Notes: generated from the letters alone by a model not told the origin. A stretch of DNA of 64,000 nt from an uncultured Gammaproteobacteria bacterium (GCA_964523905.1 CAZFYQ010000005.1:10299-74298), one strand, 5' to 3'; positions 802-42,574 are shown, counted from the stretch's first letter. Numbers and translations are program-made.

Positions 802-932
802 TGATCTGGACAAGATTCTTGCGGGGATAATTCTCACCGCGCCATCTCGAACGTATAGTTTACCACCGGTGTACAGAATCATTTCAAGAGGCAAATTTAA
901 TTTGTTGAACCCAAAATGGTATTATTAACATA

Positions 933-2837: not shown

Positions 2838-2907
2838 AATGATGCTCCAGAACCAATTATAAGATACCCGAACGAAGTGAGGGGAGGTCTTATTACTGGT
2901 GTGTAAT

Positions 2908-4706: not shown

Positions 4707-4737
4707 ATGGATCCCTGATCAAGTCCGGGATGACAGG

Positions 4738-5028: not shown

Positions 5029-5035
5029 GGACTGA

Positions 5036-5368
5036 TTATATACCAAAACTTAACAAGTCAGAAAGCTTGGTTTTACTTTTTTGAATAGTGCCTTTAGGCA
5101 ACTCTAAAATCAGATTGTATTTGGGATTCCAGAAAAATACAGAGTTTGGTTTGACTACTGCCAGTTTTCTTACCTTATTTTGTTGATCTATTACTGTCAC
5201 ATCAATAGCCTCTTTCAATCCAAAAGTGTGGATACCGGAATTAATTTTAAACATCAGTGAGCGCGGATTGGTTTTTTTAAGCAGCCCCAAAGTTAAATCT
5301 TCCCAGGTTTTGGCTTCTTTTAAATCTTTGGCAATAATAGTTTTACGGGTGAGATTTTTAACAATCAC
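5036..5368 (-). CDS. DUF192 (COG1430) family protein
   Basis: The LGLL...GIHTFGLKEAIDVTVID...LAVVKPNSVF...LILELPKG pattern matches the DUF192 consensus (GLM..GMLF..IHT.GM..PLDV.F.D...KP......A..VLELP.G). Confidence 0.55.
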   Translation of the reverse strand: MIVKNLTRKTIIAKDLKEAKTWEDLTLGLLKKTNPRSLMFKINSGIHTFGLKEAIDVTVIDQQNKVRKLAVVKPNSVFFWNPKYNLILELPKGTIQKSKTKLSDLLSFGI

Positions 5369-5371
5369 TTT

Positions 5372-6301: not shown

Positions 6302-6318
6302 ATTTGCCTATTTTAGCA

Positions 6319-6726
6319 CTATTTGCGTTCAAACCAAAGCGGAGCTTTGCTGCCGGAACTCCCCGAATAGTCAAACAAAATCTCCTGGTTCTTTTTAATC
6401 TTTTTTATTGCCGTAAAAGTGATTACTTGCTCTTTTTTATTAATCTCATATTTGACATTGGGATTTTTGGAGTGGTTATATAAAGAGCCATATCCCAAAG
6501 CTAAAACCACATAGTCATCCATCCAGAAGTAGTATTCAAATAACAGATTCCATTTAGTATCCACAAAATCTTTGAAATCCAGAACTAGAATCGGAGCTAT
6601 CTCAATTATTTCCCCACTCCTGATATTTTCTGCGGCAAAAACTCCTCTGCCAGACACAAATTCTTTGTTTTCCGGGTCAAGAACTTTGGATGAGGAAATA
6701 TATAACTTCTTCGGAGGGGAAATCAA
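6319..6726 (-). CDS. SET-domain protein (putative lysine methyltransferase)
   Basis: N-SET motif GRGVFAAENIRSGEIIEIAP, NHSKNPN (NHSxxPN) and EILFDYS (ELxFDY) are all present in 135 aa. Confidence 0.65.
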   Translation of the reverse strand: MISPPKKLYISSSKVLDPENKEFVSGRGVFAAENIRSGEIIEIAPILVLDFKDFVDTKWNLLFEYYFWMDDYVVLALGYGSLYNHSKNPNVKYEINKKEQVITFTAIKKIKKNQEILFDYSGSSGSKAPLWFERK

Positions 6727-7274
6727 AATTTTACTTGAATGTCTTTTTTCTCGTCATCACTAGCTGCAAAGAAAGCTTCTTTTTGGAAACCAAACCACTG
6801 ACCAATCATGGCTGAAGGGAATTGTTCCAAAGAATTATTTAAATCCAAAACATTGGTATTGTAAAATTGACGGGAAGCAGCCACTTTAGTTTCAGTGTCA
6901 GATAATTCATCTTGCAACTCTTTAAAATTATCCGAGGCTTTTAAATCAGGATAGGCTTCTGCCACTGCAAACAAGGACTTCAAAGCACCGGACAACTGGT
7001 CGTTAGCTTTGGCTTTGTCCTGTAAAGATCCGGCACTCATCAAAGCAGAGCGGGCTTTAGTGACATTTTCAAAAACGGATTTTTCATGTTTGGCATAACC
7101 TTTAACTGTTTCTACTAAATTAGGAATTAAAGAGGAGCGGCGTTTTAGTTGGACATCAATCTCAGACCAGGCTTCACGAACCCGGTTTCTCAGAGTAATC
7201 AGACCGTTATAAGTTAACAGCAACCAGCCGCCAATTAAAACTACCAAACCGATTACAATATATAGGGGATTCAT
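6723..7274 (-). CDS. LemA family protein
   Basis: N-terminal TM helix then LITLRNRVREAWSEIDVQLKRRSSLIPNLVETVKGYAKHE..., which matches the LemA family pattern. Confidence 0.85.
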   Translation of the reverse strand: MNPLYIVIGLVVLIGGWLLLTYNGLITLRNRVREAWSEIDVQLKRRSSLIPNLVETVKGYAKHEKSVFENVTKARSALMSAGSLQDKAKANDQLSGALKSLFAVAEAYPDLKASDNFKELQDELSDTETKVAASRQFYNTNVLDLNNSLEQFPSAMIGQWFGFQKEAFFAASDDEKKDIQVKF

Positions 7275-7277
7275 TAA

Positions 7278-9026
7278 CTACAGTTTAAACCATTTGGCAA
7301 AATCTGTCCAGTTCCAGGTATTTACAATGTCCTTTTTTTCAGCCCAGCCCCGGCGGGCAACAGATACTCCATAAGGCATATTTTCCATTTGCGAAACTTC
7401 ATGAGCATCTGTATTAATTACAAATTTAACTCCATAGCCAAGTGCCATTTTCACCAAATCATCCCGCAAATCCAAACGGTCTGGATGCGCATTAATTTCC
7501 ATTAGCTTGTGATTTTTAGCTGCTAATTTAAAAACTGCTTCCCAATCCGCTTCTGATGAAGGACGCTCATTTAGCAGCCGATTAGTGGGATGGGAAATGA
7601 TATCAACATGAGGATTTTCTAAAGCTGCCAAAAGTCTTTTGGTAATTACATCTTTGCCGCCATGGTGTCCGGAGTGAATGCCGGCAATACAATAATCTAA
7701 AGTTTCTAGAGCCTGATCAGGCACGCTTAAACTACCGTCTCCCAGGATATCTATTTCGAGTCCATTAAGTACTCGAATACTATTTGTTTTCTTTTTTACC
7801 TCCTGAATAACTTTTGTCCTCATCTCTATTGCTTTAATCATTTGCTCTTTGCCCATAATGCCATGTCCGGGTGGATGATCAGATATTCCAATGAACTCAT
7901 AACCAAGTTGTTTAGCTTTTTTAATCATCTCTTCAATAGAATCAACACCAGGTCCATGAGAGGGATTAGGGATTGGATAATTAGTATGAATATGTAAATC
8001 ACCTTTGATATCTTTAAGTTCTACCAAGTTCGGCAGTTTATGCGCCAAGGCCGCTTCAATCTCACCAGTATCTTCCCGAATTTCCGGTGCCGGAGTATCC
8101 ATTTTCAGTAATTTATAAAACTCCTCTTCAGTTTTTGTAGGCACGATTTTGCCTGTTTTGGTGTTTTTCACTCCTTGCTCACTCAAGGATAATCCCTTAC
8201 TTAGCGCATAATTTCTCAGCTTAATATTATGATTTTTGCCTCCTGTAAAGTGTTGCAACAAAGCTCCATAACTTTCTGGAGGTCCGACTAATAAATCAAC
8301 ATGCAAACCACTCCCTAAGACTACTGTCGCTCCATATGTGCCTTTTTCTACAATCTGGGAAACCCCTGGCATTTTGGTAAAATATTCCAAAACTGAGGCT
8401 GGTTTTTTAGTAGAAACAGAAAAATCCAGGTCTCCAATGGTCACTACCTGCCTGCGAAGTGAACCTAAGGGGTCTACTTCTAATACATCTGGAGAGATTT
8501 TTAAATACTCAATGATTTTATTAGCCTGAACAGCTGCATAAGGAAGTAACATCCGGTTAGTTTTTTCAGATACCTGCTCTAAAGACACTAATAGCTTCTC
8601 AGCAATCTTTTCTGAGAAGCCTTTTTTAGCCAAGTTGCCAGATTTAATTTGCTTTTTTAAATCACCCAGCGAGCGTATTCCCAGGCTAACTAACTCCTGA
8701 GCAGTCTTCGGACCGATTCCGGGTATATCCAGGAGCTCAAATAGCACCTTTGGAATGCCTTTCTTTGCCCACTGGAACTGTTTAGCCTTACCAGTTCTGA
8801 ATAATTCATCTAAATGACCCTGTATTCCCTTGCCTAAACCAGGCACTAAATCCATCTTTCCTTCCTGCCAGAGATCTTTTATTTCCGAAGTAGAATGTTC
8901 AATAGAATCTGCTGCGTTTTCATAAGCCCGAATCTCAAAAACTACACTGGGCCCTTTTTTCTTAATCGAATAAGCTGCCGCAATTTCACGAAGGAGTTTT
9001 GCAATATAAGCATTGCTTGTTTGCAT
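7278..9026 (-). CDS. polX: DNA polymerase/3'-5' exonuclease PolX (Pol beta-like domain + PHP domain)
   Basis: Helix-hairpin-helix motifs (GIGPKTAQEL) are followed by a C-terminal PHP domain (HIHTNYP...ISDHPPGHG...INTDAH). Start at 9024-9026; the ORF track allows 9059. Confidence 0.85.
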   Translation of the reverse strand: MQTSNAYIAKLLREIAAAYSIKKKGPSVVFEIRAYENAADSIEHSTSEIKDLWQEGKMDLVPGLGKGIQGHLDELFRTGKAKQFQWAKKGIPKVLFELLDIPGIGPKTAQELVSLGIRSLGDLKKQIKSGNLAKKGFSEKIAEKLLVSLEQVSEKTNRMLLPYAAVQANKIIEYLKISPDVLEVDPLGSLRRQVVTIGDLDFSVSTKKPASVLEYFTKMPGVSQIVEKGTYGATVVLGSGLHVDLLVGPPESYGALLQHFTGGKNHNIKLRNYALSKGLSLSEQGVKNTKTGKIVPTKTEEEFYKLLKMDTPAPEIREDTGEIEAALAHKLPNLVELKDIKGDLHIHTNYPIPNPSHGPGVDSIEEMIKKAKQLGYEFIGISDHPPGHGIMGKEQMIKAIEMRTKVIQEVKKKTNSIRVLNGLEIDILGDGSLSVPDQALETLDYCIAGIHSGHHGGKDVITKRLLAALENPHVDIISHPTNRLLNERPSSEADWEAVFKLAAKNHKLMEINAHPDRLDLRDDLVKMALGYGVKFVINTDAHEVSQMENMPYGVSVARRGWAEKKDIVNTWNWTDFAKWFKL

Positions 9027-9093
9027 GTAGTAAATATACCTTTTCGTTGAAATATACACAAGTATTATGTAAAATACTTTCTGGTGTTTATTA

Positions 9094-9167
9094 GGGGCCG
9101 TAACTCAACGGTTAGAGTGCCTCGTTGTCAACGAGGATGTTGCGGGTTCGAATCCCGTCGGTCCCGC
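9094..9167 (+). tRNA. tRNA-Asp (anticodon GTC)
   Basis: Cloverleaf folded by hand. Acceptor GGGGCCG/CGGTCCC with one G-U pair. D-arm ACTC/GAGT. Anticodon loop TTGTCAA gives GTC. T-arm GCGGG-TTCGAAT-CCCGT. Confidence 0.85.
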
Positions 9168-9242
9168 ATTTACCTATTGACAATCAAATTGATTTAGTCT
9201 AAAAAGAAAAAGTAAAACTCCTGCCTATCCTGCTCCCAACTA

Positions 9243-9911
9243 ATGGCTACTAGAGGAAGACCAAAAAAAACTAATACTAAATCCAGCCCTGATTTCTTGG
9301 AAAAAATTTCCCGAGAAACGCAGTCCAATCAATCAAGACTGAGTATGATCTTGGGTGGGTTAATTATTTTAGTAATTGTGGTTTTAATCTTTAATTACTT
9401 TAACAAACCAAAAGCAGAACTAGGTCCTGCTCAACAAACTCAAGCTAATGCTCAACATGATGTCACGCCGGACAATCTTCCCGGTAAATACACTGTTAAA
9501 GATGGTGACACCTTGTTTACCATTGCCGATGCCTATTATAAAGATGGTTATCAATATCCAGTGATTGCTCAGACTAACAACATTGCAAACCCGGATCTTT
9601 TGGAAGCCGGACAGGTTTTAACAATTCCTAAATTACCGGCCTCAGCCATGCAAGAAAATCCTGGTCAAGATCAATCCAGCTTACCCCAAGAACAGGTCAC
9701 CACTGACAATAGCAATACTCCCAATAATGCAACCACCTGGGGACCAACCATCCAAGGTGACAGCTACACAGTAACTGCTGGTGATTGGCTTTCTACAATT
9801 GCCGGCCGGGCTTACGGAGATGTGATGTCTTATCAAAAAATTGCCGATGCCAATGGCATTACTGATCCTAATGTGATTGAAGTTGGCACCGTCTTAAAAA
9901 TTCCCCGCTAA
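9243..9911 (+). CDS. LysM domain peptidoglycan-binding protein (two LysM repeats, N-terminal TM)
   Basis: Two LysM motifs: YTVKDGDTLFTIADAYY...LLEAGQVLTIP and YTVTAGDWLSTIAGRAYG...IEVGTVLKIP. A TM helix lies near the N-terminus. Confidence 0.8.
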   Translation: MATRGRPKKTNTKSSPDFLEKISRETQSNQSRLSMILGGLIILVIVVLIFNYFNKPKAELGPAQQTQANAQHDVTPDNLPGKYTVKDGDTLFTIADAYYKDGYQYPVIAQTNNIANPDLLEAGQVLTIPKLPASAMQENPGQDQSSLPQEQVTTDNSNTPNNATTWGPTIQGDSYTVTAGDWLSTIAGRAYGDVMSYQKIADANGITDPNVIEVGTVLKIPR

Positions 9912-9928
9912 TTTGCTATAGTAGTTAA

Positions 9929-11545
9929 GTGTCTACTCTTTTCAAAAAACCTTTTTATATCTTAATTCTCACCGCTTTGGTTTTTGTAACTTATGTCAAC
10001 TCTTTAAATAACGTCTTTTTATCAGATGATTTAGCAGAGATTGTTAATAATCCTCATGTGACCGACCTGAGTTATCAAATCACCACTCACCCAACTGGTT
10101 TTATCAGGCCACTGATTTATTGGCTCTCTATTAGTATTGCCGGATTAAATCCGTTTTTAATTAGACTAACCAATATTTTATTCCATCTAGGTTCAGTTTG
10201 GCTGATTTTTGCGATTATTACTAAACTGCATCAGTCGAAAAAGTTGGCCTTTTTTGTGGCATCTTTGTTTGCAGTACATCCCGCATATGCTGAAGCAGTG
10301 GTGTGGATTTCCGGTGGCATGTATGCCCAATATGCCTTCTTTTTCCTGTTATCTTTTTGGTTTTACATTTACTCCCCTGCAAAAAAATATTATCTATTAT
10401 CTATTACCAGTTATCTATTATCCTTCATGTCCCATCCGGTCATGCCAGAAGCGCTTTGGCTGGTGTTCCCATTGTATGAGTTGGCATATGGTAATTTTAA
10501 GAAAAATTGGTTAAAGGCTTTACCGTTTTTAATTCTGGCTGTTTGCTATGTGTTTGTAAATTTCTCTGTTTTACCTGAGCGCGAAACTACTTTGCAAACC
10601 GTACACTATCAGGAAAAAGGCATTGATAACCCGTTTATGCTAATTCCGGTGGCCATTGGCTCCTACTTTGAGCTGTTGGTTTTCCCTAAAGATTTAACTT
10701 TATATCATTCTGAGCTCAATTTTGGCCCATTTGTATTTTCTATAATTGTGGCAATCACTTTAGCCTTTATCGGGGCCCTTTTTTGGGCTTTTAAGAAAAA
10801 CAAGCCGATATTCTTCTGGCTGAGCTTTTTCTGGCTGGCTTTGGCTCCGACCTTGACGCCATTTCGGCTGAACTGGATTGTGGCAGAACGATATTTATAT
10901 TTATCATCCATTGGCATTTTTGTGGCTGTGGGACTGGCTTTAGGTCCTTTATTAAAGAAAAAACAGTACCAGACTATTGCAACTGCGATTTTAGTGTTTA
11001 TTTTAATTGCGCTTTCCGTCCGAACTATTTTCCGCAATATTGACTGGGCTACTGAAGATAACCTGTGGATTGCCACTGGTAAAACCTCTCCATCTTCTCC
11101 TAATACACATAATAATCTGGGAGATGTTTACGGTAGACATGGTGATAAACAAGCTGCTTTACGCGAATTTCAAACAGCCATTGATTTAAAGCCGGACTAT
11201 GGTGATGCTTATCATAATTTGGCTAATACCTATAGAGAACTGGGTCAAATGGATAAAGCCTTAGAAAATTACCAAAATGCCATTAAATATAACCCCGGCC
11301 TTTGGCAGTCTTATCAAAATATAGCGGCCATCTACTTCCAAGCTAAAATGTATGATAAAGCCTTAGCCAACATCCAGCAGGCCATTAAAATTAATCCCAA
11401 TAATCTGAATTTAGTAGATAATTTAGGCTTGATTTATTTAACCATGGGTCAAAAAGATCAGGCCAAACAAGTTTTCCAAGCTGTCTTAAACGCCGCACCG
11501 CAAAACCAATTCGCCCAACAAGGCCTAACAGCAGCTTCCAAATGA
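9929..11545 (+). CDS. polytopic membrane protein with C-terminal TPR repeats (TMTC/DUF1736-like putative glycosyltransferase)
   Basis: About 10 TM helices, then three or more TPR-like repeats (AYHNLANTYRELGQMDKALENYQNAIKYNP...). The stop codon abuts tRNA-Thr. Confidence 0.7.
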   Translation: MSTLFKKPFYILILTALVFVTYVNSLNNVFLSDDLAEIVNNPHVTDLSYQITTHPTGFIRPLIYWLSISIAGLNPFLIRLTNILFHLGSVWLIFAIITKLHQSKKLAFFVASLFAVHPAYAEAVVWISGGMYAQYAFFFLLSFWFYIYSPAKKYYLLSITSYLLSFMSHPVMPEALWLVFPLYELAYGNFKKNWLKALPFLILAVCYVFVNFSVLPERETTLQTVHYQEKGIDNPFMLIPVAIGSYFELLVFPKDLTLYHSELNFGPFVFSIIVAITLAFIGALFWAFKKNKPIFFWLSFFWLALAPTLTPFRLNWIVAERYLYLSSIGIFVAVGLALGPLLKKKQYQTIATAILVFILIALSVRTIFRNIDWATEDNLWIATGKTSPSSPNTHNNLGDVYGRHGDKQAALREFQTAIDLKPDYGDAYHNLANTYRELGQMDKALENYQNAIKYNPGLWQSYQNIAAIYFQAKMYDKALANIQQAIKINPNNLNLVDNLGLIYLTMGQKDQAKQVFQAVLNAAPQNQFAQQGLTAASK

Positions 11546-11617
11546 GCCAACGGTGGGATACGAGCCCACGACCTATCCCTTACGAAGGGAGTGCTCTACC
11601 AGCTGAGCTACGTTGGC
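11545..11617 (-). tRNA. tRNA-Thr (anticodon CGT)
   Basis: Reverse complement gives GCCAACG-TA-GCTC-AGCTGGTA-GAGC-A-CTCCC-TTCGTAA-GGGAT-AGGTC-GTGGG-CTCGTAT-CCCAC-CGTTGGC. The anticodon is CGT. Confidence 0.85.
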
Positions 11618-11646
11618 AAGTTACAGTATTATAGTATAATTAGGGC

Positions 11647-11994
11647 ATGAATGACCTCACAAAACAACATTGTGAACCTTGTGAAGGAGGTACCAAGCCT
11701 TTTACTAAGGCTGAGGCCAATAAATATTTAACAGCTGTGGAAAACTGGGAGCTTTTAGCCACGCAAGGCGTTGCCTTGGAGCCTATGAAAATTCAGCGCA
11801 AATTTTCCTTTAAAAATTTCCAGGAAGCATTGGATTTTATTAATAAAGTAGGAAAACTGGCCGAATCCGAAGACCACCATCCTGATATAAACTTACATAA
11901 CTATAGAAAAGTAGATATTACTTTATCTACTCACGCTATTGATGGACTGTCTATTAACGACTTTGTAATGGCTGCCAGAATTAATCAGATTTAA
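11647..11994 (+). CDS. phhB: pterin-4-alpha-carbinolamine dehydratase (PCD/DCoH)
   Basis: PCD signature E-x-x-x-H-H-P-D seen as SEDHHPDINLHNYRKVDITLSTHAIDGLS. Length 115 aa. Confidence 0.75.
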   Translation: MNDLTKQHCEPCEGGTKPFTKAEANKYLTAVENWELLATQGVALEPMKIQRKFSFKNFQEALDFINKVGKLAESEDHHPDINLHNYRKVDITLSTHAIDGLSINDFVMAARINQI

Positions 11995-11998
11995 ATTA

Positions 11999-12547
11999 CT
12001 AACCCTGTTCATACACCCATCGGCGATATCGGTTTAATCCAGTAATTGCTGCAGCCACAGCCATAGCGGCTGAAACTGCACCAGCTGCATCAACCTGGAA
12101 ACCTCTTGTGAAACCTAAACTAGTACGTTCGCCTCTTACATCATCCTGAATTTCATTCAGTGCTTTTATCCGCATATCAGTATTATTAACTATTTTAAAA
12201 GCTAATTTTTGCTGCATAACTTCCTCAGGAAATTGAATCGTTACTTTTGTCCCCTGAGCTGTAGCTACTTCCTGACGGACAATGGACCTCATTGCTCCAG
12301 TTTCCATAGTGGATACTATAGATCTTGATTGAGTTACTTCTTCTCCGCTATAGCCCTGAGGAATCATATGTAAGTTTTCTCTCACCATTAATCTTTGCTG
12401 TATCTCACTATCCATTGCATTTTTATCTTGTTCAACTAATATCATTCCACCAATACCTAACCCTGCAATTAAAGCTAAACGCCCGCCAACAGAAGAAGCC
12501 ACATTTGCTACCCTTTTTACATAATTAACAGAATTTTCTACTAACAT
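11999..12547 (-). CDS. hypothetical protein
   Basis: 182-aa ORF with Ala/Gly-rich hydrophobic ends. No recognisable family. Confidence 0.4.
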   Translation of the reverse strand: MLVENSVNYVKRVANVASSVGGRLALIAGLGIGGMILVEQDKNAMDSEIQQRLMVRENLHMIPQGYSGEEVTQSRSIVSTMETGAMRSIVRQEVATAQGTKVTIQFPEEVMQQKLAFKIVNNTDMRIKALNEIQDDVRGERTSLGFTRGFQVDAAGAVSAAMAVAAAITGLNRYRRWVYEQG

Positions 12548-12632
12548 ATGGGCCCAATATATTATTTATAGTGTTAATTGTCAATCATAAAGCTGATTTT
12601 GACGAACTAAGAAATAATAGTATAGTAGTTAT

Positions 12633-13526
12633 ATGGATGAGGGGGATATGGAACAAGAAAACTTGGTAGGAATACATCCTGATACATACCTTAGAGAACT
12701 TTACGGCAAAGCAGTTGATCCTGAAACCGGCGCTCACAATATGGGTATGGCCCATACCGCATTAGCAGAAGCCTACTTAGTAAAGCTCGAAGACTTTTGG
12801 AAAATACACCCTGAAGAAGCTCCTCAAATTGCCAAGGATCAGGTTAGCAAAGAATTGGAGGAATTGGTTAAACAAGGCAATGAGGAATCGTTTAAATTAG
12901 CCATATTTAAGGAGGGAGCCAGGGCCTTATTTGCGGAGTCAATTAAGGATGCTGATAACGTAATTATTGATACTGTTGGAAATGAGGAGCAGCAAGCACA
13001 GAAGCTTAAATATCTTAATCCGGCTGAACAGGCCACTCAAGAACTGATAGCCGGCGGGATGAGCCAAGAAGAGGCTACACTACTGGTACGTAAGAAGCTT
13101 GAGGTGCATATTCATGCCGCTAATAAACACCAGGTTATTGAGCAGGAAATCAAAATGTTTAAAGCATTAGGTTATCGAACTGTGTTACTAGCCGATGATA
13201 AAGGCGAAAATATTGCCAAATATCAGGAAATTGGCCGAGCCACCAATGATAATAACCCAGAACACCCATTTCAGGTGTTGGATTATTACGTTAATAACGA
13301 CCCTAAGCAAACAGAAGGAGATATTAATCATTTTGGACAGTTTATGCGGGATGAAATCAAAAGAACTCATGAACAAGGCGGTAAAGTAGCCGTGATCTGG
13401 GACTGGGATGATACGCTTTATGATGAGTCTAAGCGCGTCGCAATTGCCCACCAGATCACTGAAAGATTAATTAATCAAAGATACATCAAAATCGCCTCAG
13501 TTCCTTCCCTACCCGTAGCTGCTTAA
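12633..13526 (+). CDS. hypothetical protein with a C-terminal HAD-motif-I-like segment
   Basis: 297-aa ORF. Residues near the C-terminus read GGKVAVIWDWDDTLYD, which matches HAD motif I (hhhhDxDxTL). The rest has no recognisable family. Confidence 0.5.
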   Translation: MDEGDMEQENLVGIHPDTYLRELYGKAVDPETGAHNMGMAHTALAEAYLVKLEDFWKIHPEEAPQIAKDQVSKELEELVKQGNEESFKLAIFKEGARALFAESIKDADNVIIDTVGNEEQQAQKLKYLNPAEQATQELIAGGMSQEEATLLVRKKLEVHIHAANKHQVIEQEIKMFKALGYRTVLLADDKGENIAKYQEIGRATNDNNPEHPFQVLDYYVNNDPKQTEGDINHFGQFMRDEIKRTHEQGGKVAVIWDWDDTLYDESKRVAIAHQITERLINQRYIKIASVPSLPVAA

Positions 13527-13603
13527 TTTTTCTTAATATAACTGCTATAGTGAAATTGTGGCAGAAGCAACATCAACAGGCTAAGCATAACTAGCTAGCC
13601 AAC

Positions 13604-14323
13604 CTAGGGATGATAAGTTACTTTACGCTGGATGTCTGTAGAATTACCGGCTGCATCAGTGGCCTGGATATCAACCGTATTATCTCCTTCATTAATATCA
13701 ATGGTGGTAGAAAAACCACCATCACTACCAAGCACTACTTGGCTACCATTTACTAAGACTTGGATTCCTGGTTCGGTTTTTCCCGAAACCTGAACCTTTT
13801 TATCACCACCCTGGATAGTTTTATTATCTTCCGGTGAATCCACTGATAAATCCGGTTTTTGGTTATCATAAGTAACAGCATATGTTTTGGAAGGTAAACT
13901 GAGCTGGTTTTTATCATCAACAGTTTTAGCGAAAATATTATTAGTCCCTAAACTTAAAGAGATATCATTAAAAATAAACGAGCCGTCATCTCCGGCTTTT
14001 TCTGTGCCTTTTAGGTCATCATCAATATATAAATTAACTTTAGAATCCGCGGTGGCATAGCCGGAAATAGTAATCTGAGCTGTATTTGTAGCCTCAAAAG
14101 GAATACTTAAAATTGGTGGAGCTAAGGTCGGATTTTCCGCCGCTGATTGGACAGGAGCTGATTTGTGTCCAAAGTTTTTAAAAAAACCTACTCCGTTAAT
14201 TAAAAAGGGTAATACCCAGGTAAAAGCCACATATAATAAGACCAGAATTATTACAATGGTAGCAATAAAATTATAACGGGTTTTACGAGCCAATCTTCTG
14301 TTTGAACGCGTCTGATAAGCCAT
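13604..14323 (-). CDS. hypothetical membrane-anchored extracellular protein (Ig/Big-like beta-rich)
   Basis: Basic N-terminus plus a TM helix. The rest is Thr/Ser/Asp/Gly-rich with repeated VxxGxxD patterns. Confidence 0.5.
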   Translation of the reverse strand: MAYQTRSNRRLARKTRYNFIATIVIILVLLYVAFTWVLPFLINGVGFFKNFGHKSAPVQSAAENPTLAPPILSIPFEATNTAQITISGYATADSKVNLYIDDDLKGTEKAGDDGSFIFNDISLSLGTNNIFAKTVDDKNQLSLPSKTYAVTYDNQKPDLSVDSPEDNKTIQGGDKKVQVSGKTEPGIQVLVNGSQVVLGSDGGFSTTIDINEGDNTVDIQATDAAGNSTDIQRKVTYHP

Positions 14324-14506
14324 GCTTTGTTGTCACATCAAACCTATTCCTGTGACAAGAAATTGTTTTTGATACCTCGCAGCTCCTTTTCTGTGGGGTA
14401 TTTCAATACATTATATCCTAGTAGTAAAATAGATGTCGCTAGTTTACTTCTGGTGATTAGCGAGAAGCGGTGGTAATTTCCGACAAAAGCTAGACAATTT
14501 GCCGGA

Positions 14507-14657
14507 CCTGCCAAAATATAGAATTTTTGGCAGGCAGTGGTAGAATGCCTCCTTCCTCCACTAAAAGCCCGCCCATGGCGGGACATTTTAGTGGACCCAC
14601 CAAAATACCTGCCCGCAATTGCTATGCGTTGCAGGCGGGCGAAGTTTTTGGTGGGCA
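14507..14657. repeat. three consecutive long palindromes of form X-AAAA...GC-rich inner stem...TTTT-X'
   Basis: CCTGCCAAAA-tatagaat-TTTTTGGCAGG; CCACTAAAA-gcccgcc-cat-ggcggga-c-ATTTTAGTGG; CCCACCAAAA-...cctgcccgcaattgc...gcaggcgggcg...-TTTTTGGTGGG. Each outer arm pair is an exact reverse complement. Confidence 0.6.
14535..14556 (+). pseudogene. tRNA-Gly fragment (D-loop to anticodon loop), 21/22 nt identical to the intact tRNA-Gly 390 nt downstream
   Basis: cagtggtagaatgcctccttcc versus cagtggtagtatgcctccttcc in the tRNA at 14945-15016. No acceptor or T-arm is present. Confidence 0.55.
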
Positions 14658-14675
14658 AGGTGATAAGCTAAAAAT

Positions 14676-14954
14676 ATGATGTATTTTACTTATGTACTTT
14701 TGTGCGAAAATAGCAAAACTGGTAAAAAGAATTTTTATATTGGTTGGACAGAAAATCTCGAAGAGCGCTTAGAAGATCATCGATCAAAAAGCACGCCAAC
14801 TACAAAACAATTTGATAAAATAGCGCTGGTTTATTATGAAGCAAGTTTATCTAAAACAGATGCTATCAGCAGAGAGAGGCAGCTCAAGACAGGTTTTGGT
14901 AGAGGCTATATTAAGCGAAGAATCGAAAGTTATTTAAAAGATTTGCGGGTGTAG
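14676..14954 (+). CDS. GIY-YIG nuclease family protein (small, UPF0213/YhbQ-like)
   Basis: FYTYVLLCENSKTGKKNFYIGWTENLEERLEDH carries the GIY-YIG motifs (YVL...YIG...R..EH). The ORF's last 10 nt, including the stop, lie inside the tRNA-Gly 5' end. Confidence 0.8.
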   Translation: MMYFTYVLLCENSKTGKKNFYIGWTENLEERLEDHRSKSTPTTKQFDKIALVYYEASLSKTDAISRERQLKTGFGRGYIKRRIESYLKDLRV

Positions 14955-15016
14955 TACAGTGGTAGTATGCCTCCTTCCCAAGGAGGAGATCGCCGGTTCG
15001 AGCCCGGTCACCCGCT
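14945..15016 (+). tRNA. tRNA-Gly (anticodon CCC)
   Basis: GCGGGTG-TA-GTAC-AGTGGTA-GTAT-G-CCTCC-TTCCCAA-GGAGG-AGAT-CGCCG-GTTCGAG-CCCGG(T)-CACCCGC. Anticodon loop TTCCCAA gives CCC. Confidence 0.85.
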
Positions 15017-15030
15017 CTAAAGCCTATAGT

Positions 15031-15059
15031 TTGACAAGGAACGAGCTATTTAGTATAAT
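15031..15059 (+). promoter_or_regulatory. consensus sigma70-like promoter TTGACA-N17-TATAAT, 6 nt upstream of the 15066 ATG
   Basis: ttgaca (15031-15036), 17-nt spacer, tataat (15054-15059). Confidence 0.45.
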
Positions 15060-15065
15060 CTCTCC

Positions 15066-15860
15066 ATGACAAAAGAAGGATTTGAGCCTATATTTCATGG
15101 AAAAATGGAAGCTGTCGCGCAACTTTCTGATCTGGAATTCCAGGAATATGCCCTTGAGAAGAGTCTCTTACTCCCTAGTGCATTAAGGGAAAAAGCAGCA
15201 GCATTTATCCATAACCTAGGTTTGGGTTTACTAGTTTTACCATCCAGGGTGATTTACATTCCAATATCACACGGCCCATTAAATTCACCTGATGAGCATA
15301 AAACTAAAATTGCAGTAGCTAAAGTTTTGGGCAGAACCGTCGGAAATAGCTTGATTGCGAATGGAGAATCCGTAAGTAAAGTACAAAGCCAGCAAGGTAT
15401 TAGAAGAAGTCATCTACGTTTTTTTAGAGAAATGACTAAATGGGGGTTAACTACTAATATCAAAAGTCAACAAAAAACTTTAAGCGGCTTTGAGATGGCT
15501 ATTACTGAATATTTGGCAGAACATCAACACATAAAAGGTGTTGGGGTTGATTCTTTTGATGGAAATATTGTGAGTACTGCAGTCATGAGCCAAGCTTTAG
15601 AATCCGACAGATTTAATATGGAACAAAATTTGGACTTAATTGCTACCTTTGCTGCTGAAGCGAGAACGCGCAATGCGTTAAATAGAGCCACAGTTTATTT
15701 AGATACAAACCAAGAGCTTATTTTTTTCCAGGGATCACTACATCAAAATGGTGTTACTGAGTGGTGTAAGAGGCATACTGTACCATACCAGATACTTACA
15801 CCTGAAACAGAAGAGGTAGAGGATTCATCAATAATACCAGTTGAAAAGCCGGTAGTTTAG
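15066..15860 (+). CDS. hypothetical protein
   Basis: 264-aa ORF directly after tRNA-Gly, carrying the consensus promoter above. No recognisable family. Confidence 0.5.
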   Translation: MTKEGFEPIFHGKMEAVAQLSDLEFQEYALEKSLLLPSALREKAAAFIHNLGLGLLVLPSRVIYIPISHGPLNSPDEHKTKIAVAKVLGRTVGNSLIANGESVSKVQSQQGIRRSHLRFFREMTKWGLTTNIKSQQKTLSGFEMAITEYLAEHQHIKGVGVDSFDGNIVSTAVMSQALESDRFNMEQNLDLIATFAAEARTRNALNRATVYLDTNQELIFFQGSLHQNGVTEWCKRHTVPYQILTPETEEVEDSSIIPVEKPVV

Positions 15861-15864
15861 GTTT

Positions 15865-16920
15865 TTAAGAAACCCAGTAGCCGTTGGTAAATAATATGGT
15901 AAATGCTGACAGAAGCATTAAACTGATCATCTGATAAAAGAAATTTATTTTCTCGTTTTTGATTTGGGCCAGCAGGATAAAAATTGGAAAGACCGGTAAG
16001 ATAAACCGTGGCATTGATATCAAAGAAGTTGTCAGAAGTGGAATAAGCAGGGTTCCTAAACTATAAATACTTAAAAATCCCGGCAAAAAGCGAAAACTGC
16101 GAATGGCAAATCCCAGCCCAAAAATTGCAAAAAGCAGATCCAGTAAAACATTAAAATCAATGTTAACTCCGCTACTGGTTAAGCTTTTAATACTGTCCCA
16201 AAAGCTAAGACCCGGAATAGTTAAGGCTCTTTGCCAATGCTGTTCAGCAGTAAAAAAATAAAACGGGTCCCCTGTTTGATGAAATAAATAAACACAGTAA
16301 ATTACCAGCCCGATTGGCGATAGCAATACTACCCAATTTTTGCGATTAACTCCGGTTATTAAAACTTCCACAATCAAACTAATTGCTACAATAATTCCGA
16401 CCAATCTGGTAGCAGAAGCTAAGGCAGCAAAAATAGTAGCCCAACCAAATTTTTTATTTTGCCAAAAAGAAAAGGTTAAAACTGCCAACAAAAAAAATAA
16501 GCCCTCAGAATATGCAGTTAAAAAGAAAAAAGAAGTTGGAAAAAAAAGCAATGCCAGTATAGTTTTCTCGGCAATTTTTTTGTCAAACAATTTATTAACT
16601 AAACCGTATAAAAAATGCAATCCCAGAAAAAAAGATCCTCCGCTAATTAAAATTGCTGACAATAGATAATTATTTGTTACTAATGATAAGAATCTGATTA
16701 ACAAAGGATACAAAGGAAAAAAAGCATACTGAAAATTCTGTGAATAACCATTTTTTGCTATCCCTAAAAAATGGCCGCCGTCCCAATTTCCTAGATTGGT
16801 TAAAAAGTCTGTAGAAAATTTACCGGAATGAGGAAATTGCATAAACCCAAAATACGAGATAAAAAAAATCGATATTGCCCATATGCAAAAATAGAAGGTG
16901 ATACTAGAATATAATTTCAT
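15865..16920 (-). CDS. polytopic membrane protein, GT-C-like (PIG-V/DUF2029-type mannosyltransferase-like)
   Basis: At least 9 TM helices. The N-terminal region WDGGHFLGIAKNGY...FFPLYPLLIR resembles GT-C mannosyltransferase family proteins. Start is ambiguous: ATG at 16918-16920 or GTG/ATG at 16951-16953. Confidence 0.5.
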   Translation of the reverse strand: MKLYSSITFYFCIWAISIFFISYFGFMQFPHSGKFSTDFLTNLGNWDGGHFLGIAKNGYSQNFQYAFFPLYPLLIRFLSLVTNNYLLSAILISGGSFFLGLHFLYGLVNKLFDKKIAEKTILALLFFPTSFFFLTAYSEGLFFLLAVLTFSFWQNKKFGWATIFAALASATRLVGIIVAISLIVEVLITGVNRKNWVVLLSPIGLVIYCVYLFHQTGDPFYFFTAEQHWQRALTIPGLSFWDSIKSLTSSGVNIDFNVLLDLLFAIFGLGFAIRSFRFLPGFLSIYSLGTLLIPLLTTSLISMPRFILPVFPIFILLAQIKNEKINFFYQMISLMLLSAFTILFTNGYWVS

Positions 16921-18064
16921 GAACTTTTCTGTTTTGATTCTAACACTGGCCATAATTTGCGGTCAATTAATTAGGGTTCCACTTGGACAATCCGGTTACT
17001 TAAATCTGCTGGATGTGACAGTTGGCATACTGGACCTTTGGGCTTTATTTCAAATCAAATTTAAGTTTAAAAAGCCACCGCTTTTTTTAAATTTTGCTTT
17101 TTTGTTTATTGCTGTCGCCGTTATTTCTTTAATATTTACTCCATTACACTTACAATCTAATCAGTATTTAACCAGCTTTTTTTATACTGTTAGATTTTCT
17201 ATCTATATTTTACTTGCTTGGCTACTGTTATTAGGTGCTTTACCGGATTTAAGAAAAAATATTAGTCCCCTGCTTACTGTTAGCGGAATTATCTTGGCAG
17301 TTTTGGGCTTGCTGCAATTTATTTTTATACCGGATTTAAGATTTTTGCAGAACTTTAGCTGGGATCCACATTACTTCCGGACTGTGTCCACATTTTTAGA
17401 TCCCAACTTTATCGGCGCCTTTTTTGTCTTAACCCTTTTGTCATTACAGAGATTGCCGCGTCCTCGCCGATGGCTCGTCCTCGCAATGACGATTACCTAT
17501 CTGGCTTTACTAACTACTTTTTCCCGCTCCAGTTATTTAATGTTTTTAGTTTCCGGTATTACTTTAGCTTTTTTAAACCGCTCCAAAACTCTACTTTTTA
17601 AAACTCTGACTGGATTTATCATTTTACTGTTGGGATTTTGGTTCTATGTCCAGCTGGTAACCCAGCCACATAATATTGATAGGACTCAATCTGCGGCTTT
17701 TCGTTTAACCACCTGGCAACAAGGTCTAGATTTATTTAGCAAAAATCCCTTTTTGGGAGTTGGCTATAATGCATATCGTTTTGGCATTGAACAATATAAT
17801 TTGGGTAATGAGCAGTTTGTGGAAAGTCATGGTTCTACTTCCAATGATTCATCTTTACTGTCAGTACTGTCCACTACTGGTATCCTTGGACTGATTGCTT
17901 TTGGAGCCTGGTTGTTTTTCTCAGTTAAATATTCACGGGGGGGGAATTTAATTCTGATTTCCGGTATTGTCGGATTATTAATCCACAGTTTTTTTGCTAA
18001 TAGCTTATTTTATCCACCAATATTACTTTGGATAATTCTTAATTCCGTAATCCCCAAAACGTAA
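16919..18064 (+). CDS. O-antigen ligase/polymerase (Wzy_C) family membrane protein
   Basis: Multi-TM protein with the LTTFSRSSYLMFLVSGITLAF segment typical of the O-antigen ligase domain, then a periplasmic loop and further TMs. Confidence 0.6.
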   Translation: MNFSVLILTLAIICGQLIRVPLGQSGYLNLLDVTVGILDLWALFQIKFKFKKPPLFLNFAFLFIAVAVISLIFTPLHLQSNQYLTSFFYTVRFSIYILLAWLLLLGALPDLRKNISPLLTVSGIILAVLGLLQFIFIPDLRFLQNFSWDPHYFRTVSTFLDPNFIGAFFVLTLLSLQRLPRPRRWLVLAMTITYLALLTTFSRSSYLMFLVSGITLAFLNRSKTLLFKTLTGFIILLLGFWFYVQLVTQPHNIDRTQSAAFRLTTWQQGLDLFSKNPFLGVGYNAYRFGIEQYNLGNEQFVESHGSTSNDSSLLSVLSTTGILGLIAFGAWLFFSVKYSRGGNLILISGIVGLLIHSFFANSLFYPPILLWIILNSVIPKT

Positions 18065-19046
18065 TTGGCTTTGGTTTTAGAAAGCTTTCCAGATATTCAT
18101 TACTAACCCGTCGGCTTCTTTGTATTTGAGATCTTTTACTTAGCAACCTGGGTAAATTCCAAAGCAACCACAGTTTGGTTAAAATAGGTGGCCAAATAAA
18201 ACCGTTTTTTAATTGATAAAAAACAGTATTGTAATAAACCAAGATAATTTTTAGCCAGCGCCAGTCTTTCAGTAAAACTCCGGATGGAAAATCTTTAATA
18301 ATTGTTGCCATCATATTGCGAAACTGCCAGTACTCAACATGTTGCGGCAATTTTTTAGACGTAGCTTTATGTTTATGAAAAACAACTGCCTTGGGACAGT
18401 ATATTGATTTCCACTCGGCAAACTGCGCCCGAAAAGCTAAATCAACTTCCTCAGAATACATAAAAAAACTGGCGTCAAACATACCAAGTTCAATAAACTC
18501 TTCTCGTCTAAATAATGAGGCTCCCCCTGTGGCTCCGAATATGTATGCTTCTTTTTCATAAAGACCAGTGTCTTTTTCATTCCAACCAATTGAACGAGCT
18601 TGTCCAACCTCATTGATTTGTATTCCTACCCCATCAATTAGCTTTTTATCATAAAAATTTAACAGCTTTGGGTTAACTGAAAAAACTTCAGGGTGTTTAT
18701 CAGCACATTCAACAAGACATTTCAGCCAGTTTTTATCAACCGCTGTATCATTATTTAAAAACACCACATAATTGGCGCGAGATTTTTTAACTCCAGAATT
18801 AATTCCCCCGGCAAAGCCGAGGTTTTTTTTATTTTCAACTATTTTAATCGCCACGTCATTACGAGGCCACAAAGTGGCCGTGGCAATCTTTCTTACATAA
18901 TCCACTGACCCATCCGTCGAAGCATTATCGACTAGAATTATTTCGAAATCTTTAAAAGTTTGTTTAGACAGGGAATCAAAACAGTCTGGCAAAAGTTCTT
19001 TACCATTCCAGTTAGGAATAATTACTGAGGCCTTAACGACTGCCAT
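18039..19046 (-). CDS. glycosyltransferase family 2
   Basis: VIIPNWNGKELLPDCFDSLSKQTFKDFEIILVDNASTDGS is a classic GT2 N-terminus with the DxD region. Confidence 0.85.
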   Translation of the reverse strand: MAVVKASVIIPNWNGKELLPDCFDSLSKQTFKDFEIILVDNASTDGSVDYVRKIATATLWPRNDVAIKIVENKKNLGFAGGINSGVKKSRANYVVFLNNDTAVDKNWLKCLVECADKHPEVFSVNPKLLNFYDKKLIDGVGIQINEVGQARSIGWNEKDTGLYEKEAYIFGATGGASLFRREEFIELGMFDASFFMYSEEVDLAFRAQFAEWKSIYCPKAVVFHKHKATSKKLPQHVEYWQFRNMMATIIKDFPSGVLLKDWRWLKIILVYYNTVFYQLKNGFIWPPILTKLWLLWNLPRLLSKRSQIQRSRRVSNEYLESFLKPKPITFWGLRN

Positions 19047-20271
19047 GAAAAATCTTTCTATTGATCAAGCTATAAAAAACCACAAAAGATAAAATATCAG
19101 ATGCCACAGTCACCCAAGCTGCTCCAATAAAACCCATGCCAGGAATTAATAACAGATTTAAAACCACATTAAATGCTACGGTTAATAGCGAGTAGTAAAT
19201 TACCTGCTTTAAATATTTATCGGAGGATAAAAGCACCTGTACCCCCGGGGTGGCCATAAAGATAAATGGTAAAGATAAAGCAAGTATTTGGATGGCAGAA
19301 ATTGCCGGTAAAAACTGTGGCAGGAAAAAATGAATTAATGGGGGTAATATAAAAACATATCCCACATAAGCTAAAACCCCAAGCATTGCCATTAACTTTA
19401 AACTTTTAAAATAGAGTTTTTTCATCTCCTCAGTGCCACTGTCATGCAATTTAGCCAAACTGGGGAAAAGTGCAGAGGCAAAAGCGCTGGGTACAAAAAT
19501 AATTGCTTCTAGAAATCGGTAGGAGATACCATATATTCCAGTTTCAAAACTACCCCGCAAATAAGACAGGATTATGGTATCAATCCGAAAATATAACAAG
19601 CCCAATATCCCTAATATTCCATAGGGCAAGGATCCTTTTAAAGCTTTTTTTAAAATACTTAGACTAATATTGGTTAAAGATAACACCCGACGCTTTTGTA
19701 AGAATAGGAAAAGCACTAAAACCAGTGTTAATTGTCCAATAATTAAGGCAGAGACTACTCCAGTTGGTCCAAATCCTAAGGTCACCAAATATACACCAAA
19801 CAAAGCATTAACTAAGCTAGAAATAAATAAAGCCAAGGCAGATAATTTAAAACCCTGAGTGGCTAAGAATATGCCATCAAAAGTTAATGCCACTGATTGC
19901 GGCAAAATTGCCAACACTGCCAGCAAAGTTAAATCTACCCGAGTTTTATCCGGATCCAGTAAATATAAACCAAGAGCAAACAGGCCAAAGGTGATGGAAG
20001 TTAGAGTTAAACGAAGCATTAAGACGTTACAAGTTAACTCTGATATTTTTAATTGGTCGCGGGAAATTTCTCGAATTAAAAAACGGTTAAATCCCAAATC
20101 AGCTACTGCAGAAACAATGGAAAAATAAGCTAAAGCCACAGTATATAAACCATAATCAGCTACCCCTAAATTCTTGGCCAGGAAAATCGTATAAAAAAAA
20201 CCGATTAATTTAGTTAAAACCTGAGCTGAAACAAGCCACGAAGCTTGCCTTAAAATCTGCCTCATATCCAA
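19033..20271 (-). CDS. polysaccharide biosynthesis protein / oligosaccharide flippase (MOP/Wzx-like)
   Basis: 412 aa with about 12 TM helices. The N-terminus (LVSAQVLTKLIGFFYTIFLAKNLGVADYGLY) matches the polysaccharide biosynthesis protein (PF01943-type) pattern. Confidence 0.8.
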   Translation of the reverse strand: MDMRQILRQASWLVSAQVLTKLIGFFYTIFLAKNLGVADYGLYTVALAYFSIVSAVADLGFNRFLIREISRDQLKISELTCNVLMLRLTLTSITFGLFALGLYLLDPDKTRVDLTLLAVLAILPQSVALTFDGIFLATQGFKLSALALFISSLVNALFGVYLVTLGFGPTGVVSALIIGQLTLVLVLFLFLQKRRVLSLTNISLSILKKALKGSLPYGILGILGLLYFRIDTIILSYLRGSFETGIYGISYRFLEAIIFVPSAFASALFPSLAKLHDSGTEEMKKLYFKSLKLMAMLGVLAYVGYVFILPPLIHFFLPQFLPAISAIQILALSLPFIFMATPGVQVLLSSDKYLKQVIYYSLLTVAFNVVLNLLLIPGMGFIGAAWVTVASDILSFVVFYSLINRKIFHGSR

Positions 20272-20334
20272 ATTGTACCATCCTTGTCACTATGCTTGAC
20301 TTTGCATCATTAGGATCTATAATCTACAGGTAAT

Positions 20335-20781
20335 ATGGCTGCAACTCCAGAAACATATCAAGAAACACGTGCACATGATTTGGGCTTCAAGGATGAAAAG
20401 GGACAGCCGGTGCTGGGCGTGGGTAAAAGATATACAGAAGATAGTCTTTATCGTTTTATGTATTTGGCTGAAGAGGCTCTCAAACCCGCAAGAATCGTAG
20501 TTACCCTAGGTCTCAAAGAAATAGACACCCCACATGGTGAAGATAAATTACAGTTTACTACTATTACTAAAATTGAGGGCATTTCAATAGAAGAAGCGGC
20601 TTCAAGATTAATGGTGCTAAGAGAAAGTGGACCAAGTTGGGCATTTAAACCAATTCGAAGGACTGGTGACCAAATTGATTATGCGTCTACTACAATTGGT
20701 CCCAATGATACATTAGCTCTATTTAACTTCGATACTGAAGAATTTACACACCTTGTGCCAGCAGCAACAACTCTAAAATAG
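20335..20781 (+). CDS. hypothetical protein
   Basis: 148-aa ORF. GC is noticeably higher than its neighbours. A REP-like element follows immediately. Confidence 0.45.
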   Translation: MAATPETYQETRAHDLGFKDEKGQPVLGVGKRYTEDSLYRFMYLAEEALKPARIVVTLGLKEIDTPHGEDKLQFTTITKIEGISIEEAASRLMVLRESGPSWAFKPIRRTGDQIDYASTTIGPNDTLALFNFDTEEFTHLVPAATTLK

Positions 20782-20820
20782 CTTCCAATCCCAGGGGTTG
20801 AATACGTTCAAACCTCAGGA
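20780..20820 (+). repeat. REP-like 41-nt element, copy A
   Basis: agcttccaatcccaggggttgaatacgttcaaacctcagga, with central palindrome TTGAA-TACG-TTCAA. It is 40/41 identical to copy C. Confidence 0.65.
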
Positions 20821-20874
20821 TTTTTATTAGCCAAACTTTTATGATGATTTTCACCGGACTTAGGCGCTAAATAT

Positions 20875-20903
20875 TTGACAGTTATCCTATAAGCTGATAG
20901 AAT
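20875..20903 (+). promoter_or_regulatory. sigma70-like promoter TTGACA-N17-TAGAAT upstream of the 20913 ORF
   Basis: ttgaca (20875-20880), 17-nt spacer, tagaat (20898-20903). Confidence 0.4.
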
Positions 20904-20912
20904 CGGGGCAAT

Positions 20913-21338
20913 ATGGCAGAACGTGAGCGAACAGGTTCAAAATTATCTCAGGACACAAACCCGGCAGCTGAATTAAGACAGAGGATTAAAGAGGCTGCTT
21001 TAGCTAACCCGGAAATTGTGGCCTTGGCTGCTGATGCTTGGTTTGAAGGAGAATCTACAATTGAGGTAGGGAACGGAGGAGATAGATTAACTATTGATTC
21101 AGAACCACACCCTTTTGGTATTGGTCGAGTACTAAGAGTGACCAATGTAATTGACACCATGAATGGGTATAGACAGATGGAGCTTTTCGTGGCCACAAAC
21201 AACCGACCAAACAGTACATATGATTCAGTAATATTTAGCAAACCCGGACTTCCAGATGAAACTGATAATCCAGCTGCAATAGAAGGTGGGAATGATATAT
21301 TATTTGAAATGGAACGATTCCAACCTCGCGAACAGTAA
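20913..21338 (+). CDS. hypothetical protein
   Basis: 141-aa ORF bracketed by REP-like copies A and B in direct orientation. Confidence 0.45.
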   Translation: MAERERTGSKLSQDTNPAAELRQRIKEAALANPEIVALAADAWFEGESTIEVGNGGDRLTIDSEPHPFGIGRVLRVTNVIDTMNGYRQMELFVATNNRPNSTYDSVIFSKPGLPDETDNPAAIEGGNDILFEMERFQPREQ

Positions 21339-21343
21339 ATAGC

Positions 21344-21384
21344 AGCTTCCAACCCCGGGTGTTGAATACGTTCAAACCCCAGGA
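21344..21384 (+). repeat. REP-like 41-nt element, copy B
   Basis: agcttccaaccccgggtgttgaatacgttcaaaccccagga. It is 37/41 identical to copy A and sits 2 nt from the tRNA-Val 3' end. Confidence 0.65.
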
Positions 21385-21386
21385 TG

Positions 21387-21458
21387 TGGATACTGTAGGG
21401 ATTGGACCTACGACCTCCTCGATGTGAACGAGGCGCTCTACCACTGAGCTAAGTATCC
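21387..21458 (-). tRNA. tRNA-Val (anticodon CAC)
   Basis: Reverse complement gives GGATACT-TA-GCTC-AGTGGTA-GAGC-G-CCTCG-TTCACAT-CGAGG-AGGTC-GTAGG-TCCAATC-CCTAC-AGTATCC-A. Confidence 0.85.
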
Positions 21459-21482
21459 TTATTGCGTAACTGCGCTCTTCCT

Positions 21483-21523
21483 GGGAGTCATTTAGACTCC
21501 CGTCACGATTTTCAATCGTGACC
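21483..21523 (-). other. two abutting hairpins in the tRNA-Val leader
   Basis: gggagtc-attta-gactccc (7-bp stem) directly followed by gtcacgatt-ttca-atcgtgac (9-bp stem, exact palindrome). Confidence 0.5.
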
Positions 21524-21604
21524 CGCTGAGCTATCCGTCCGTTTTCCAATTCTAGCATCCTCTCTCTTGCATCACAACCTAAGTTTTTGCGATAATAGAT
21601 TACT

Positions 21605-40876: not shown

Positions 40877-40895
40877 AATAAGCCTAAAAGAATTC

Positions 40896-41567: not shown

Positions 41568-41588
41568 TAATTCAATCTTATCCTTAGG

Positions 41589-42573: not shown

Positions 42574-42574
42574 T

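Follow-up and report, generated by a model that had tools for sequence, protein, structure and literature searches.

REP-like palindromes at gene 3' ends, a RAYT-like transposase gene and two orphan genes at a variable tRNA-Val flank in a Daviesbacteria-type genome

The 64,000-nt stretch of DNA analysed here (the window) contains a small family of REP-like palindromic repeats, two copies of which (A and B) stand directly behind two orphan genes, ORF148 and ORF141, at the flank of a tRNA-Val gene where the gene content differs between relatives. Judged by its relatives, the window is a piece of a Candidatus Daviesbacteria-type (Patescibacteria) genome; it is AT-rich (GC 0.38) and its genes are tightly packed. 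We consider it moderately probable that the repeats are 3'-end palindromes dispersed by a RAYT, two of which came to lie behind the orphan genes at this variable tRNA flank. The RAYT-like HUH/Y1 single-strand DNA transposase whose gene lies at 40.9-41.6 kb, between an inverted pair of the repeat, is most likely the cognate enzyme. The RAYT would disperse the repeats, and A and B would each have inserted immediately after the stop of a small gene that has a leaderless-type promoter of its own. At these 3' ends they most likely act as hairpins, with a putative role as terminator or stabiliser; three closely spaced transcription units would thereby be kept apart: ORF148, ORF141 and, in convergent orientation, tRNA-Val. 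ORF148 and ORF141 themselves would have arrived via recombination at the hot spot, not by REP-mediated transposition. The repeats do not mark the ends of the cargo and have not demonstrably mobilised it. The features discussed below are collected in Table 1.

Table 1. Positions of the repeats, genes, promoters and tRNA elements in the window, counted from its first nucleotide
Feature	Position	Strand	Remarks
Lineage-specific variable segment	20283..21385	.	between conserved flippase promoter and tRNA-Val 3' end
ORF148 promoter	20296..20323	+	TTGACT-16-TATAAT, 11/12 matches
ORF148	20335..20781	+	no homologue; GC by codon position 0.53/0.42/0.26
REP-like repeat copy A	20780..20821	+	nhmmer 54.8 bits; followed by TTTTTATT
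ORF141 promoter	20875..20903	+	TTGACA-17-TAGAAT, 11/12 matches, TG extension
ORF141	20913..21338	+	single known homologue, 87% aa identity (L001)
REP-like repeat copy B	21344..21385	+	starts 5 nt past ORF141 stop; abuts tRNA-Val 3' end
Intact tRNA-Val(CAC)	21386/7..21458	-	acceptor stem GGATACT
Ancestral-type tRNA-Val remnant	21459..21540	-	positions 1-26 (GGACGGATAGCTCAGCGGG...AGAGCGC), 43-nt D-loop insertion
tRNA-Val promoter, conserved	21549..21577	-	TTGTGA-17-TAGAAT
REP-like repeat copy C	40836..40877	+	18 nt downstream of RAYT stop codon
RAYT-like Y1/HUH transposase gene	40896..41567	-	probable start ATG at 41567; longest ORF runs to 41690
REP-like repeat copy D, diverged, full-length	41580..41621	-	inverted with respect to C; 12 nt upstream of RAYT ATG

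The repeat family and the RAYT-like transposase gene

The 18-nt core of the repeat, GTTGAATACGTTCAAACC, occurs exactly three times in the window, against 0.07 expected, and copy D was detected with a profile built from seven repeat copies (E = 5e-5). Over the whole 64-kb window this profile found no repeat beyond A, B, C and D, giving a copy number of 4 in 64 kb. Copies A and B (41-42 nt) are 90% identical and lie in direct orientation with a spacing of 564 nt; copy C is 98% identical to copy A. The 41-nt unit encloses a palindrome with 7+7 arms and a 1-nt spacer (H1, CAACCCC-N-GGGGTTG), which is paired in 95% of the cells of nine aligned copies and shows one compensatory change, from C-G to A-T, in copy D; since the sequences are few, these pairing statistics are weak. 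The unit also has a second, overlapping hairpin and an internal half-repeat. H1 is preferred over the hairpin H2 (GGGGTTGAA/TTCAAACC), which was rejected because covariation is lacking and two copies disrupt it. As DNA, the repeats fold with -5 to -7 kcal/mol. A terminator scan did not call their hairpins terminator-like (a T-run is present at copy A only), and no Rfam family matched the repeat.

Outside the window, all copies that turned up in the public scans are in related Daviesbacteria-type DNA. A Daviesbacteria reference MAG has two exact-pattern copies, one of them 11 nt downstream of tRNA-Arg; in the metagenome contig L004 an arginase-like ORF takes its last ~18 codons from a copy; in L007 a partial copy lies 13 nt from tRNA-Gly. 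Another metagenome hit (L005) was discarded as a chance match, as the core alone matches, inside unrelated coding DNA. In viral contigs neither a copy of the repeat nor relatives of the ORF148 and ORF141 proteins were found. All nine copies (9/9) are located at gene 3' ends, namely those of ORF148, ORF141, the RAYT gene, tRNA-Val, tRNA-Arg (L003), tRNA-Gly (L007) and the L004 ORF. Three of the nine are at most 14 nt from a tRNA 3' end, with constant relative orientation, and we estimate, from this small sample (3/9), that the association with tRNA 3' ends exceeds chance. The placement at 3' ends, together with the intrusion into the L004 ORF, looks like insertion of a mobile repeat.

The RAYT-like gene is present in one copy in the window. 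With the start picked by alignment to a homologue, the protein has about 223 aa; it matches Pfam Y1_Tnp (PF01797) with 31.3 bits (cutoff 23), and its best and only NCBIfam match is REP_Tyr_transpos (E = 1.8e-10). The equivalog level of NCBIfam NF047646 is not reached (40.9 bits, cutoff 80). The HFH and RYIHLNP motifs, assigned by eye, are invariant between the protein and a 49%-identical paralogue from L007. Searched against solved structures, neither the protein alone nor a two-sequence profile gave a significant match (ISDra2 TnpA appears at E about 0.5). Copies C (+) and D (-) bracket the gene as an inverted pair, and the -35 box of the RAYT promoter lies within copy D. An inverted flanking pair of REPs is the defining mark of RAYT genes (PMC2817692). 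The name REP, which an earlier reading of the sequence alone had given to the repeats, is supported by the presence of a RAYT-like Y1 transposase gene with inverted repeat copies on both sides. Against a REP/RAYT reading stand the apparently low copy number, the absence of GTAG and CGTC from both ends of the 41-nt consensus, a RAYT score under the equivalog cutoff, with insignificant matches among solved structures, and the lack of REPIN or BIME doublets: A and B run in the same direction at a spacing of 564 nt, and the sole inverted pair, C/D, has the transposase gene inside it.

A second RAYT-like gene, 49% identical, is found between the IleRS and FtsZ genes of L007 (16049-16818; in L008, 12375-13144), an intergenic site which is empty in the window, L015 and L017. 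At this other locus the gene is flanked by a palindrome of its own, CACACACC-NN-GTGTGT, and each palindrome copy has GTAG within 1-4 nt after it. Because the palindrome of the L007 homologue is a different one, the Daviesbacteria clade holds at least two RAYT/palindrome pairs.

The repeats could also be read as an immobile, shared cis element, either a hairpin for processing or for termination in both directions, or a palindromic operator to which a dimeric DNA-binding protein would bind, and we regard this as unlikely. Selection would then hold the repeats at certain gene ends, especially after tRNA genes, which we find similarly hard to credit. This explanation is consistent with the 3'-end position of every copy, with the uniform orientation of the three copies close to tRNA 3' ends, and with the core being a near-perfect palindrome with a 1-nt spacer. 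It also fits the repeat of L001, the contig with the homologue of ORF141, which differs from that of the window at 5 of 41 positions, well below the synonymous divergence of the gene (pS 0.41). On the other hand, the boundaries of the repeats are sharp and the flanks of different copies are unrelated, one copy intrudes on a coding 3' end (L004), and the orthologous tRNA-Val and tRNA-Gly loci in relatives are without the repeat. The inverted pair around a Y1 transposase gene, and a second RAYT of the clade with a different palindrome, also speak against a cis element. Dispersal of the repeats by the RAYT is preferred.

Of the surroundings of the transposase gene, the following may be added. A 45-nt direct repeat (40791-40835 and 42571-42615, 44/45 identical) brackets a 1,735-nt unit composed of copy C, the RAYT gene, copy D and an unannotated ORF297. 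The 45-nt sequence is the last 38 nt plus the stop of the ftsI/PBP2 transpeptidase gene, and the 1,735-nt unit, along with the low-GC ORF196, stands between ftsI and murE, which adjoin in the classical dcw cluster of other bacteria. By its layout the unit looks like an integrated element with a replacement copy of the ftsI tail; a Pfam search found no integrase domain for it. Farther along the window, at 48982-49047, an intergenic gap contains a perfect tandem duplication (two copies of the 33-nt unit GACTATATCACGAAGTCATACAGGAAGCGAAGC).

The variable segment at the tRNA-Val flank

The first 2 nt of copy A are also the last 2 nt of the ORF148 stop codon (TAG, 20779-20781). Copy B abuts the 3' end of tRNA-Val(CAC), with a gap of 0-2 nt, because the tRNA gene lies on the minus strand. 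The sequence-only reading had described this layout correctly, including the direct A/B pair, the end of ORF148 at copy A, the sigma-70-like promoter and the 141-aa ORF between the two copies, and the tRNA 3' end next to copy B. The layout of both promoters is leaderless-type: from the end of the -10 box to the ATG there are 11 nt for ORF148 and 9 nt for ORF141, whose promoter is kept in L001. A Logan contig from an independent short-read run (L019) has the same order of flippase, ORF148 and copy A, and breaks inside the repeat. The leaderless-type layout recurs throughout the window: in a strict scan, 12 of 65 ORFs have good -35 and -10 boxes and no Shine-Dalgarno motif, the -10 box ending 6-11 nt ahead of the start codon (for example 20323/20335, 20903/20913, 41575/41567 and 41668/41680). 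This suggests that leaderless mRNAs are frequent in the source organism.

Synteny was anchored on LepB, with relatives at 82-67% LepB identity. The order tRNA-Val(CAC)-LepB-ParB-L27-L21-FtsW is kept in all fetched relatives, which vary in the stretch from the tRNA-Val 3' end to the flippase gene. This slot is empty in two lineages, with 40 nt (L010) or 127 nt (L015/16) from tRNA-Val to the flippase gene, and three other lineages have different cargo: a Bro-N-domain gene (L007/8/9), a large serine recombinase gene with its 3' end overlapping the tRNA, the flippase being replaced by other genes (L011-13), and three unrelated ORFs (L017). In the window the slot is filled by 1.1 kb with ORF148, copy A, ORF141 and copy B. 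Homology of the flanks stops on one side at about 20282, where the flippase -10 region is conserved, and on the other side at the tRNA, and the segment between is therefore lineage-specific cargo of a hot spot. Since there is no REP at its left edge (~20283), copy A being internal, the inserted segment is not framed by the REP copies. The proposal that the small genes are horizontally acquired, REP-delimited cargo thus holds in so far as they are lineage-specific genes in a variable tRNA-Val slot, and fails as to the repeats marking its left edge. The comparison with relatives that the same proposal called for found ORF148 and ORF141 absent where the flanking genes are kept. No recombinase or integrase domain was detected by Pfam in the segment; there are no tRNA-derived direct repeats, and the REP-like repeats contain no tRNA sequence.

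In the relative L012, the large serine recombinase gene by tRNA-Val is flanked by ~110-nt inverted repeats, and in L013 it is the other version of the repeat that adjoins the tRNA (100% vs 96.5%), which suggests an inversion polymorphism. Beside the L012 recombinase repeats there is a 114-nt conserved non-coding element, which ends in ATCCAC(CA) and includes a conserved mini-ORF (AKSKIKNQSFSLAT, then a stop); neither Rfam nor ARAGORN made a call for it in L001 or L012. The loci of these inverted repeats and of the non-coding element are L012 2550-2850 and 4306-4420, L013 1357-1467, and L001 512-625.

ORF141 is a real protein-coding gene under purifying selection: in comparison with L001 the dN/dS is 0.13 (dS 0.59), and the substitutions number 12/7/44 by codon position. 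ORF148 is a probable coding sequence, judged by its GC1 > GC2 > GC3 pattern and its promoter. Among 5.8 billion proteins (word-indexed search), ORF141 matched itself and one homologue, and ORF148 had no homologue besides itself. Pfam, NCBIfam, PHROGs and PADLOC gave no match for either protein, and paralogy of the two was ruled out by comparing them with each other. A full HMMER scan of 1.84 billion representatives with an ORF141 profile added two giant repeat proteins (E = 3e-8 and 3e-7), the significance of which is the sum of 7-11 repeat stretches at 30-35% identity; these matches are a weak lead to a possible beta-rich repeat unit, not an assignment. The two AlphaFold2 models are of low confidence (mean pLDDT 51 and 46). 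The remote homology searches proposed earlier, with profiles and structure prediction, assigned no family or fold to the 148- and 141-aa proteins. The description of both ORFs as compositionally foreign did not stand. In respect to the 65 ORFs of the window, overall GC is slightly high (0.425, z = +1.5, for ORF141; 0.403, z = +0.75, for ORF148), and GC3 (0.289 and 0.255) does not exceed the host mean of 0.318; scores for synonymous codons lie within 1 sd of the mean, so that GC3 and codon usage are host-like.

The tRNA-Val locus itself has been rebuilt at least once, since a 5' remnant of the ancestral tRNA-Val is left and a different copy now serves. The distance from the promoter to the tRNA is 11-25 nt in all relatives, and the window has about 90 extra nt. 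This extra sequence starts with GGACGGATAGCTCAGCGGG at the native position, continues with the 43-nt insert and then with AGAGCGC, and corresponds to positions 1-26 of the GGACGG-type tRNA-Val of L012 and L017. The remnant stands between the tRNA promoter and the intact tRNA-Val, the acceptor stem of which is matched by no relative examined; no 3' remnant of the ancestral tRNA-Val was found. On the simplest reading, the ancestral tRNA-Val would have been broken and another tRNA-Val copy would have come in, possibly with adjacent DNA.

The 43-nt insert consists of two perfect hairpins, GTCACGA-TTGAAAA-TCGTGAC and GGGAGTC-TAAAT-GACTCCC, unique in the window. The predicted leader of the tRNA-Val precursor (~90 nt, 21459-21548, minus strand) has a fold z-score of -4.0, and Rfam had no match for the leader or its hairpins. 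Across L007, L010, L012, L014, L017 and the window, the acceptor stems of the syntenic tRNA-Val(CAC) genes comprise GGATACT, GGACTCG, GGTCGTG, GGACGGA, GGAGCCG and GGACGGG. The difference is strong despite the 67-82% LepB identity to the window, which is unusual for a tRNA, and suggests that tRNA-Val has been repeatedly replaced at this hot spot.

Mobility of the stretch from copy A to copy B

Copy A, the promoter, ORF141 and copy B might form a non-autonomous cassette moved in trans by the Y1 transposase, in the manner of IS200/IS605/PATE elements. We hold this to be quite improbable, and the same applies to the role that A and B would have in it, as left- and right-end hairpins on one strand. 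The two copies are indeed direct and on the same strand as C, and a RAYT-like enzyme is encoded in the window. Further, L001, the only relative with ORF141, keeps the promoter, the ORF and the repeat, with homology stopping 8 nt beyond. The downstream flank in L001 is not tRNA-Val and matches the 114-nt non-coding element on the far side of the L012 recombinase island; this may be taken as the only hint of an A-ORF141-B module in another context. The contig, however, is 1.1 kb long with its upstream end cut at the contig edge, and as both flanks end in ATCCAC, the different flank in L001 may reflect a local rearrangement of the same hot spot or a short-read chimera at the repeat. There is one ORF141 copy per sampled genome (two sequences worldwide), and no second genomic context with REP ends on both sides of ORF141 was found. 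Around the RAYT gene the copies are inverted, as in REP/RAYT systems and unlike IS200, and to our knowledge RAYTs do not carry passengers. The low probability given to a cassette follows from L001 being short and lacking its upstream part, and from the fact that short-read contigs can be chimeric at repeats. In its most specific form, the RAYT-like enzyme would use the direct REP pair as a substrate and move a promoter-equipped passenger between ATCCAC-type RNA-gene 3' ends (tRNA-Val in the window genome, the conserved non-coding element in the L001 relative), which we find very doubtful.

An origin of A and B as attL/attR scars, left by a site-specific integrative element which had inserted at the tRNA-Val 3' end, is extremely improbable: the tRNA 3' flank has proved to be a hot spot, and the serine recombinase gene of one relative overlaps the tRNA-Val 3' end, but the repeats include no tRNA sequence, the segment has no integrase, copy A is inside the lineage-specific segment and not at its edge, and the third and fourth copies, 20 kb off around the transposase gene, largely refute it.

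Comparison with known systems

In general, the locus is a further example of a known repeat type, REP/RAYT, at an ordinary tRNA-flank hot spot; a new mobile cassette is not demonstrated, and current concepts are unchanged. What is known of REP/RAYT systems comes almost entirely from Proteobacteria and from a few other groups in culture. If the reading of RAYT-dispersed palindromes is true, a RAYT with inverted cognate palindromes and solo copies would mean that single-strand HUH "domesticated repeat" systems operate in Patescibacteria too, whose genomes are very small and dense with genes, with two different RAYT/palindrome pairs within one Daviesbacteria clade. The locus also documents lineage-specific gene gain, as the cargo at the tRNA-Val flank differs in nearly every relative and the tRNA itself appears to have been replaced. 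It is a tidy, testable example.

The segment resembles tRNA-flank islets in that relatives carry different cargo at one tRNA 3' flank, in one lineage a recombinase-bearing element, and that its own cargo consists of orphan genes. Unlike such islets, it has no integrase and no tRNA-derived direct repeats, its composition is host-like, and the tRNA was apparently replaced, leaving a 5' and not a 3' remnant. With the IS200/IS605/PATE elements the window shares the enzyme superfamily (PF01797), and the A...B arrangement resembles their direct subterminal hairpins on one strand. In contrast to IS200/IS605, no transposase lies between A and B, and the flanks of the transposase gene are inverted, not direct. 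The protein of about 223 aa fits the RAYT model better than IS200, and multiple copies of the A-B unit, as in IS200/IS605/PATE, were not seen (one other instance, L001, with its upstream end cut by the contig edge).

REP and RAYT systems are on record from gamma-proteobacteria, and later work extended them to many bacterial classes (PMC2817692, PMC3337134, PMC5581495). In our full-text literature search no title or abstract described REP/RAYT in Patescibacteria, and one preprint mentions both terms; the Daviesbacteria-type host sets the window apart from the classical systems. Classical REPs have a conserved GTAG or CGTC tetranucleotide head (PMC3733652, PMC2817692) and often more than 100 copies per genome (PMC2817692), whereas the repeat of the window appears to be low-copy, lacks a GTAG head and is not arranged in REPIN or BIME doublets. 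Low-abundance flanking repeats have been reported for RAYT groups 1 and 4 (PMC5581495). The length of 41 nt, the overlapping second hairpin, the internal half-repeat and the association with tRNA 3' ends are also unlike classical REPs. As in REP/RAYT systems, the repeat is a short imperfect extragenic palindrome at gene 3' ends, the Y1/HUH gene is placed between two inverted copies, and each RAYT of the clade has its own palindrome.
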